Assembly: GCF_024502345.1 (NCBI RefSeq)
Contig: NZ_JALDNN010000001.1
Direction: 5' to 3' (one strand)
Length of the DNA: 64,000 bases
From: Escherichia coli
Lineage (GTDB): Bacteria; Pseudomonadota; Gammaproteobacteria; Enterobacterales; Enterobacteriaceae
Part shown: positions 11,227-11,618 of the stretch, one piece after another
Position numbering within the stretch: position 1 is the stretch's first letter
Layout of the letters: every line of letters begins with the position of its first letter
Program-made: the position numbers and the translations under genes
The notes under the pieces: generated by a model
Databases searched by the model: none
The model's input: only the letters and a program-made list of their open reading frames with translations
Told to the model about the DNA's origin: nothing

Positions 11227-11353
11227 AGGGGCTTCATCCGAATTGCGCCATTGTTGCAATGGCGGTTTTTATTGTTTTTCACGACAGTAACCGCACCTAC
11301 ACTGTCATGACATTGCTCGCCCCTATGTGTAACAAATAACCACACTGTGAATG

Positions 11354-11367
11354 TTGTCTTTAATCAA
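11354..11367 (-). promoter_or_regulatory. candidate FNR-type site (TTGAT-N4-GACAA) in nrfA promoter region
   Basis: Reverse strand reads ttgattaaagacaa, one good and one degenerate half-site, about 130 bp upstream of nrfA ATG; assignment from pattern only. Confidence 0.35.
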
Positions 11368-11618
11368 TTGTAAGTGCATGTAAAATACCACTTTAGAGTT
11401 AGTCAGTATCTTCCTCTTTTTCAACAGCATGCATAACTGCATGTTCCTCAAAGAATTAATCAACTTTTGTTGCTGACCTTCAAAAATTACCCTGCCGTTT
11501 ATTTGCACAATTCTACTTTTGCGTGATCTGTCGCCCAAATACTAAACAAAACTGCCAATACCCCTACATTTAACGCTTATGCCACATATTATTAACATCC
11601 TACAAGGAGAACAAAAGC

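Follow-up and report, generated by a model that had tools for sequence, protein, structure and literature searches.

The divergent genes nrfA, on the minus strand with its ATG at 11226, and acs, on the plus strand with its ATG at 11619, are separated by an intergenic spacer of 392 bp (11227-11618) in the window, by which is meant the whole 64,000-nucleotide stretch of Escherichia coli DNA that was analysed. The locus raises the question of whether the FNR-like and CRP-like strings that can be read by eye in this spacer are working parts of a regulatory region, and of whether any of the spacer is left to explain once such sites have been accounted for. As argued below, the spacer is almost certainly a shared control region for two E. 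coli transcription units that diverge and are regulated independently of each other. Sequence identity, site positions, motif scores and conservation come from this analysis; binding and regulatory effects are those published for the identical K-12 sequence.

Identity and composition of the spacer

A megablast search with 11100-11750 found matches in 5413 of the 5426 complete E. coli genomes, nearly all at an identity of at least 95%, with nrfA and acs annotated on either side. In the best-matching record, the nrfABCD... and acs-yjcH-actP operons diverge from the spacer. Open reading frames, annotation and genome matches all agree with the spacer limits and the two gene assignments that had been proposed in the first-pass annotation. 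One BL21 record has an interrupted spacer, which proved to be an engineered promoter swap and no natural variant.

Comparison of the window with K-12 MG1655 revealed zero differences across 11138-11755 (window position equals 4298990 minus the MG1655 coordinate). Because the spacer is identical to that of MG1655, the sites mapped in K-12 can be transferred to the window base for base. The nrfA-acs spacer has been described as a shared regulatory region (PMC5434802), and this control region is already known in detail, being among the best-characterised divergent control regions of E. coli.

The spacer had also been called strongly AT-rich. Its GC content is 38.8%, whereas that of the window is 50.8% and those of nrfA and acs are 52.6% and 56.8%, respectively. 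This bears out the AT-richness, but the word "strongly" overstates it, since this value falls at the 9th percentile among all segments of 392 bp and is normal for intergenic DNA.

The nrf promoter

Transcription of nrf is driven by a single promoter, pnrf, with FNR bound at -41.5, NarL/NarP at -74.5, and three sites each for IHF and Fis (PMC5434802). Besides FNR, the nrf regulators are NarL/NarP, IHF, Fis and CsrA (PMC5434802), as well as NsrR (PMC12285233). The transcription start was placed at 11319 by means of the p+102A substitution (PMC5434802), which alters the third base of the AGG at codon 3 of nrfA and thus corresponds to window position 11218; the same substitution relieves CsrA repression of nrfA (PMC5434802). 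With +1 at 11319, position -41.5 falls at 11360.5, which is the exact centre of TTGATTAAAGACAA, and position -74.5 falls at 11393.5, which is the exact centre of the paired NarL/NarP heptamers. The features on this side of the spacer are:

11216-11226, minus strand: start codon of nrfA at 11226-11224, together with ACAAGGAT, the CsrA-binding sequence that spans codons 2-4 (open reading frame and annotation)
11219-11217, minus strand: the CsrA GGA, +101 to +103 of pnrf, its central G at +102
11334-11326, minus strand: extended -10 element of pnrf, TGtTACACA, with its upstream TG (from the sequence)
11327-11341, minus strand: Fis I, overlapping the pnrf -10 element; consensus match with one mismatch, centred at 11334, or -15
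11354-11367, minus strand: FNR site TTGATTAAAGACAA for class II activation, which also covers the -35 region of acsP1 (literature and matrix)
11368-11385: segment between the FNR and NarL/NarP sites, with the repressing IHF I site and an overlapping NsrR target (roles from PMC5434802 and PMC12285233)
11386-11401: NarL/NarP 7-2-7 site TACCACT-TT-AGAGTTA, centred at -74.5 of pnrf, with two mismatches to inverted TACYYMT heptamers

The string TTGATTAAAGACAA, originally recorded as FNR-like on the nrfA side, is indeed present on the minus strand at 11354-11367 and is the mapped FNR site at -41.5. It was scored with a matrix constructed from 31 motifs that a ChIP-chip study listed for new FNR targets (Table 2 of PMC1802558); none of these motifs derives from nrf, and their median score is 12.8 bits. 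The site attains 13.9 bits, ranking third among 63,983 window positions, and agrees with the FNR consensus TTGAT-N4-ATCAA at eight of ten bases. ChIP-chip identifies the acs/nrfA region as a target of FNR in vivo (PMC1802558), and fnr mutants exhibit a drop of approximately 100-fold in nrf promoter activity (Table 1 of PMC5434802).

The core of pnrf, on the other hand, is weak, with TACACA as its -10 hexamer and no match to the sigma-70 consensus. Both hallmarks of a class II FNR-activated promoter are therefore present, namely an FNR box near -41.5 and a weak core lacking a consensus -35 element. We take the centre of Fis I to be at -15 of pnrf (Browning 2005), and likewise assume that IHF I, at about -54, and the NsrR target both lie inside 11368-11385 (Browning 2002/2006/2010). 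In rich medium, the promoter is repressed through Fis I, which overlaps the -10 element (PMC5434802).

The -10 element also differs between strains. In enterohaemorrhagic E. coli (EHEC), an improved -10 has been printed as TATACT and described as one base off K-12 at -7 (PMC5434802). Yet the hexamer from -12 to -7 is TACACA in both K-12 and the window, with which the printed TATACT is irreconcilable. An allele reading TACACT, with T at -7, matched 283 genomes at an identity of at least 99%, and the eight matches listed, which include O157:H7 strains, are all at 100%. Judging from these genomes, the actual EHEC allele is TACACT, and the window carries the K-12 form.

The acs promoters

Transcription of acs begins at -224 (acsP1) and -20 (acsP2) from the ATG, which correspond to window positions 11395 and 11599 (PMC2759082), and it is abolished in the absence of CRP or cAMP (PMC3783194). 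The acsP2 promoter is described as having two activator sites for CRP, of which the proximal is at -69.5, together with three Fis and three IHF repressor sites that serve as anti-activators (PMC3531196, RegulonDB description). On this side of the spacer, the features are:

11395, plus strand: start of acsP1 (PMC2759082), inside the NarL/NarP site, with a -10-like TAAAAT at 11381-11386
11469-11484: candidate for the low-affinity CRP II site, GTTGCTGACCTTCAAA, centred at 11476.5; also FNR-like, with two mismatches
11494-11508: Fis-consensus match in the conserved block TTATTTGCACAATTC, centred at 11501, or -98 of acsP2
11519-11540: CRP I, a 22-mer with core cGTGAtctgtcGCCCA (11522-11537), centred at -69.5 of acsP2 (literature and conservation)
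11533-11547: Fis-consensus match with one mismatch, overlapping the promoter-proximal edge of CRP I and centred at 11540, or -59 of acsP2
11587-11599, plus strand: acsP2 -10 element TATTAT (11587-11592) and start at 11599, 20 nt before the ATG (5'RACE, PMC2759082)
11604-11621, plus strand: acs Shine-Dalgarno sequence AAGGAG (11604-11609) and ATG (11619-11621) (sequence and annotation)

Position -69.5 of acsP2 corresponds to 11529.5, the centre of cGTGAtctgtcGCCCA, and acsP2 thus has, relative to its start site at 11599, the CRP box at -69.5 of a CRP-dependent class III promoter. [quoted passage not shown] The CRP-like string tttgcgtgatctgtcgcccaaat that had been picked out by eye is this mapped CRP I, although it lies at 11518-11540 rather than at 11521-11545.

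Both CRP I and CRP II retain G4 and C13, the most important positions of the CRP box (PMC3105977). The CRP II candidate GTTGCTGACCTTCAAA has six of the ten CRP consensus bases, and only its right half, CTTCAAAA, is kept outside Escherichia. The FNR matrix places a further FNR-like match, at 11470-11483, in 32nd position, and this match coincides with the expected CRP II. We take CRP II to be the site at -122.5 of acsP2 (Beatty 2003), the Fis match at 11501 to be the acs Fis site at -98 (Browning 2004), that at 11540 to be the acs Fis site at -59, and TAAAAT at 11381-11386 to be the -10-like hexamer of acsP1 (Browning 2002/2006/2010). Fis is an anti-activator of CRP at acsP2 (PMC3531196), while acsP1, a weak divergent promoter contained in the -87 to +10 fragment, is completely repressed by FNR (PMC5434802).

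Motif statistics

Were the spacer judged by consensus counts, a case could be made that it is ordinary AT-rich DNA in which the FNR-like and CRP-like strings are functionless chance matches. Allowing up to three mismatches, the full CRP consensus is matched six times in the spacer, as compared with 3.95 expected, and 200 times in the window, as compared with 219 expected. CRP I is itself a three-mismatch site with seven of the ten consensus bases, and a perfect CRP consensus is found inside the ssb coding sequence (24581-24596), showing that a match alone means little. The several TGTGA/TCACA-like half-sites that had been reported on the acs side are likewise at chance frequency, with 16 half-sites of at most one mismatch against 16.6 expected from dinucleotide shuffles, and the sole exact TGTGA in the spacer (11346-11350) is on the nrfA side.

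For the FNR consensus with up to two mismatches, the spacer contains two distinct sites (four matches over both strands), as compared with 0.63 expected over both strands, and this count is attained by 4.4% of shuffles; the whole window contains 55 such matches. The NarL/NarP 7-2-7 arrangement, at the same tolerance, occurs twice in the 64-kb window, once at the nrf site, with 2.3 occurrences expected by chance. No match to the IHF consensus with at most one mismatch was found in the spacer, and IHF-like matches with two mismatches lie near -48/-49 and -106 of pnrf. Matches to the degenerate Fis consensus are centred at 11334 (-15 of pnrf), 11540 (-59 of acsP2) and 11501 (-98 of acsP2). Relative to dinucleotide shuffles, the spacer showed no significant enrichment for the CRP full site, the CRP half-site, the NarL heptamer, IHF, Fis or the NsrR half-site. 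Similarly, a scan of 11100-11750 for sigma-70 consensus promoters gave no match, but since these promoters are activator-dependent, the absence is expected and uninformative as a test.

By consensus matching alone, CRP I, CRP II and the IHF sites are indistinguishable from chance. CRP I is deemed real because of its position, its conservation and the published experiments; that CRP genomic SELEX did not recover acs as a target (PMC3105977) is consistent with weak sites. The idea that the strings are chance matches is refuted by the literature and by conservation. The sequence is identical to a K-12 region that has been dissected experimentally, the FNR site stands near the top of the matrix ranking in a region bound by FNR in vivo, and the site blocks are conserved at 0.91-0.99, as compared with 0.58 at silent sites. 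We regard its probability as practically nil.

These results also bear on how a site inventory should be tested. The first-pass annotation had proposed that its reading be given up if no motif scored above background. The FNR site does stand above background and the CRP and IHF sites do not, so that this is a poor refutation criterion, which would wrongly discard the CRP and IHF sites. Reading by eye caught the true FNR and CRP I sites, whereas consensus scans would reject CRP I, CRP II and all of the IHF sites. The lesson is that a lack of motifs above background is invalid as a test for weak, cooperative activator sites. The description of the spacer as a dense regulatory hub agrees with the published site inventory for nrf and acsP2.

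Conservation of the sites across genera

One genome per species with NrfA was scanned, yielding 34 loci. The acs gene is divergent from nrfA in Escherichia, with spacers of 392-393 bp, in Citrobacter, with 431-436 bp, and in Salmonella arizonae and Intestinirhabdus, with 431 and 420 bp, respectively. Trabulsiella, Enterobacter sp. BIGb0383, Entomohabitans and Serratia lack this arrangement. Averaged over 19 non-Escherichia species (from Citrobacter, Salmonella and Intestinirhabdus), identity to the window sequence is as follows:

NarL/NarP site: 0.99 (14 of 16 bases invariant across genera)
FNR box: 0.97 (12 of 14 bases invariant in the 19 species)
acs leader: 0.96 (13 of 19 bases invariant)
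IHF I/NsrR segment, 11368-11385: 0.95 (16 of 18 bases invariant in the 19 species)
CRP I: 0.91 for the core and 0.93 for the 22-mer (14 of 16 and 19 of 22 bases invariant in the 19 species)
Fis-like site at -59 of acsP2, 11533-11547: 0.93 (11 of 15 bases invariant)
acsP2 core: 0.90
pnrf -10/Fis I, 11326-11341: 0.86 (11 of 16 bases invariant across genera)
CRP II: 0.67
stretches between sites: 0.58-0.68
4-fold degenerate sites of acs, as baseline: 0.58

At acsP2, ACATATTATTAACATC forms a near-invariant run, each base of which is kept in at least 94% of the 19 species. The non-Escherichia spacers contain an insertion of 37-40 bp between 11413 and 11414, in agreement with the Salmonella insertion in the nrf spacer shown in Figure 2 of PMC5434802. 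Taken across genera, conservation marks out the mapped sites cleanly.

The most strongly conserved part of the spacer coincides in part with an annotated open reading frame:

11323-11379, minus strand: ytcB (b4821), 18 codons, from the MG1655 annotation; overlapping the FNR box and situated upstream of the pnrf +1

The near-invariant block at 11350-11402 might accordingly be conserved because it encodes YtcB, and not because it consists of protein-binding DNA sites. Indeed, ytcB is annotated in MG1655, and its first nine codons are nearly unchanged across genera. However, its start codon is retained in only 10 of 24 species and is ATA in the other 14, such that 14 of the 19 non-Escherichia species are without a canonical start. 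Furthermore, the invariant block runs 23 bp beyond the upstream end of the open reading frame, across the NarL/NarP site, while the middle codons of ytcB (11342-11353) are its least conserved part, at 0.70. The open reading frame also lies entirely upstream of the only mapped nrf promoter start. Conservation as YtcB coding sequence is thus highly improbable. A literature search on ytcB returned Bacillus papers only. Because the start codon survives in 10 of 24 species, the apparent conservation of ytcB is attributed to the DNA sites beneath it, whose conservation it would simply reflect.

The nrfA leader

The structured, conserved leader of nrfA, the role of which has been called "unclear" (PMC5434802), is the only part of the spacer still to explain. 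Its mean identity to the 19 non-Escherichia species is 0.80, and its features are:

11227-11319, minus strand: 5' untranslated leader of nrfA, 93 nt, from the pnrf +1 to the ATG
11280-11310, minus strand, +10 to +40: stem-loop 1, TCATGACAG...CTGTCGTG, from the consensus fold, with three compensatory pairs
11246-11264, minus strand, +56 to +74: stem-loop 2, CGCCATTG-caa-CAATGGCG, from the consensus fold, preceded by an A-rich run

An alignment of 22 leaders, four of them from genera without an adjacent acs, folds into these two stem-loops. In the alignment, 95.4% of cells are paired, as compared with 27-59% when the partners are slid, and seven pairs exhibit compensatory changes. On four of five pairing measures, the observed value is matched by at most 1 of 500 shuffles; the fifth, which counts further pair types, is unremarkable, being attained by 140 of 500. 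Following the stem-loops, a single-stranded GGA (11238-11236, minus strand) is conserved along with both of them, even where acs is not a neighbour. An Rfam scan of 10800-12000 found nothing at the gathering score, and the sole match with an E-value of 1 or less was to a eukaryotic lncRNA model, at 19.4 bits as compared with the 40 required.

The hairpin and T-run at 11246-11280 could also be read in the opposite sense, as an intrinsic terminator on the plus strand that halts transcripts antisense to nrfA before they reach the acs control region. A terminator scan detected on that strand an 8-bp stem with five G-C pairs, followed by GTTTTTATTG, where 0.5 such structures are expected, and the T-rich tract is conserved. 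The stem-loop and T-run of an intrinsic terminator are therefore present. Its other two attributes, a position at the end of a transcription unit and a structure that favours the plus strand, are not: no plus-strand gene lies upstream, where that strand is antisense of nrfA, and the hairpin is inside the transcribed nrfA leader. Pairing is also better in the nrfA-sense RNA than on the plus strand, both overall (95.4% vs 82.0%) and in stem-loop 1 (94.9% vs 74.0%) and stem-loop 2 (96.9% vs 86.8%), owing to the 63 cells that form G-U pairs in the nrfA sense. Moreover, Trabulsiella and Enterobacter sp., in which nrfA does not have acs next to it, also carry stem-loop 2 ahead of nrfA. On the strength of the strand-specific pairing, the plus-strand terminator was dropped as the main reading, and we consider it unlikely; the hairpin at 11246-11264 is more likely to be nrfA mRNA structure than an acs-side terminator.

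The compensatory changes are specific to the strand that corresponds to the nrfA mRNA. As part of that mRNA, the two stem-loops and the upstream GGA could form a cis-regulatory RNA element that has not been described before, a suggestion that we make tentatively and with rather more doubt than confidence. The upstream GGA could, for instance, allow a CsrA dimer to bridge to the GGA at the start codon, or the leader could control mRNA stability or sRNA access.

Proposed regulation of the two promoters

Together, the site positions and the published regulation suggest the following scheme. Having an extended -10 element but no usable -35, pnrf would depend upon FNR, which when bound at -41.5 under anoxia would recruit RNA polymerase. 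This activation would be held down by IHF at IHF I and by Fis over the -10 element, with Fis conveying a signal of nutrient richness. In response to nitrite or nitrate, phosphorylated NarL/NarP would bind at 11386-11401 and displace IHF, thereby raising nrf expression. NsrR would contribute control by nitric oxide, and CsrA, acting through the GGA over codons 2-4, would block nrfA translation and so supply an input of carbon status.

On the opposite strand, acsP2, with a good -10 element (TATTAT) and a poor -35, would be activated by cAMP-CRP bound in tandem at 11522-11537 (-69.5) and 11469-11484 (-122.5), and CRP would be countered by Fis in exponential growth and by IHF in stationary phase. 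The acsP1 promoter, placed back-to-back with pnrf so that it overlaps the sites for FNR and NarL, would be shut off upon FNR binding. The same stretch of DNA would thus serve two promoters that respond to different signals: oxygen, nitrite, nitrate, nutrients, nitric oxide and carbon at pnrf, and cAMP-CRP and growth phase at acsP2. As a finding, this arrangement is correct but ordinary; it is useful as a calibration case and unimportant as a discovery.

Comparison with known systems

The closest known system is the nrfA/acsP1 region of K-12 (Browning et al. 2002, 2005, 2006, 2010; Godfrey et al. 2017, PMC5434802), to which the DNA of the window is identical, without a single difference in the spacer. 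FNR at -41.5, NarL/NarP at -74.5, Fis over the -10 element, the extended -10 and the CsrA GGA are all found where the published nrf map places them. The same holds for the class III CRP-dependent acsP2 promoter of E. coli (Kumari 2000; Beatty 2003; Browning 2004), with which the window copy shares its sequence, its start site, CRP I at -69.5 and a candidate for the second CRP site further upstream; the anti-activators Fis and IHF are also common to the published promoter and the window copy. At the -10 element of pnrf, the window strain has the K-12-type TACACA, in contrast to the TACACT of O157:H7.

The promoter of the nir operon is likewise a class II FNR promoter (-41.5) that is held down by IHF and Fis and released by NarL/NarP. 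Its regulatory logic is the same as that of nrf, but nir is a different locus with a different spacing of sites, and it has no divergent CRP-dependent partner. The nir promoter is cited in both PMC5434802 and PMC12285233.

The nrfA-acs spacers of Salmonella and Citrobacter share with that of E. coli the divergent layout, the FNR and NarL/NarP sites, CRP I and the core promoter blocks, whereas CRP II and the stretch at approximately 11402-11468 have diverged. They further differ in the bases around +1 and at 11377, where C is replaced by T within the NsrR/IHF I segment. Work by Browning in 2010 is said to have found the NsrR target inactivated in Salmonella.

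Conserved RNA structure in the nrfA leader

A fold of the aligned nrfA leaders predicts two stem-loops in the 5' untranslated region, with a conserved, single-stranded GGA after them.

11280-11310, minus strand, stem-loop in the nrfA 5' UTR
11246-11264, minus strand, stem-loop in the nrfA 5' UTR
11238-11236, minus strand, single-stranded GGA

The stem-loops and the GGA are kept across the alignment of 22 enterobacterial leaders, in which seven base pairs of the stem-loops display compensatory change, and pairing is stronger on the nrfA-sense strand than on the opposite strand. 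An Rfam scan across the leader returned no family match. The role of this leader has been termed unclear (PMC5434802).

Alleles of the nrf promoter and the overlapping ytcB frame

In K-12 and in the window, the -10 hexamer of the nrf promoter, pnrf, is TACACA. The O157:H7 hexamer has been given as TATACT (PMC5434802); contrary to that printed sequence, the genomes show TACACT, the base differing from K-12 being position -7 (window 11326). A 91-nt query carrying TACACT matched 283 genomes at no less than 99% identity, and the matches listed, O157:H7 included, were all 100% identical.

The MG1655 annotation also places a small open reading frame here.

11323-11379, minus strand, ytcB (b4821), 18 amino acids

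This frame overlaps the FNR box of pnrf and lies upstream of the sole mapped nrf start site, so that its expression would need another nrfA-sense transcript. Its ATG is replaced by ATA in 14 of the 24 species compared (14 of the 19 outside Escherichia), and a literature search for ytcB found no E. coli paper naming it.

Variation of the spacer between species

One base of the ytcB start codon is window 11377, where Salmonella arizonae and most Citrobacter carry a C-to-T change (GTGCATG to GTGTATG). The segment around this position holds the NsrR and IHF I targets. Browning is said to have reported in 2010 an inactivated NsrR target in Salmonella, and the C-to-T change fits such a loss. In Citrobacter, Salmonella arizonae and Intestinirhabdus, a poorly conserved insertion of 37-40 bp at 11413/11414 separates the cluster of sites near nrf from the one near acs, altering how far apart these two halves lie and therefore also their helical phasing.

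Motif matches elsewhere in the window

A perfect CRP consensus, TGTGATATAGTTCACA, lies within the ssb coding sequence (24581-24596), a reminder that a consensus match by itself is no evidence of a regulatory site. The other top-scoring matches of the FNR matrix in the window are these.

17363-17380, 16.0 bits, 3' end of yjcE
25801-25818, 14.4 bits, inside uvrA
48581-48598, 13.6 bits, inside malM

Across the whole 64 kb, FNR-consensus matches with at most two mismatches numbered 55, versus 32.8 (s.d. 5.5) in shuffles, an excess that probably stems from a bias in oligonucleotide or codon use and not from genuine sites.

A replaced acs promoter in BL21

Alignment of NZ_CP170101.1 (E. coli BL21) to window 11519-11618 shows that approximately 230 bp stand in place of the acs promoter, whose sequence is missing between the upstream boundary of CRP I and the acs ATG. 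We take this genome to be that of a putative engineered constitutive-acs strain. With its TTGACA-N17-TAAACT and the partial 'integrase' annotated in it by RefSeq, the insert has the look of a class 1 integron's promoter end.
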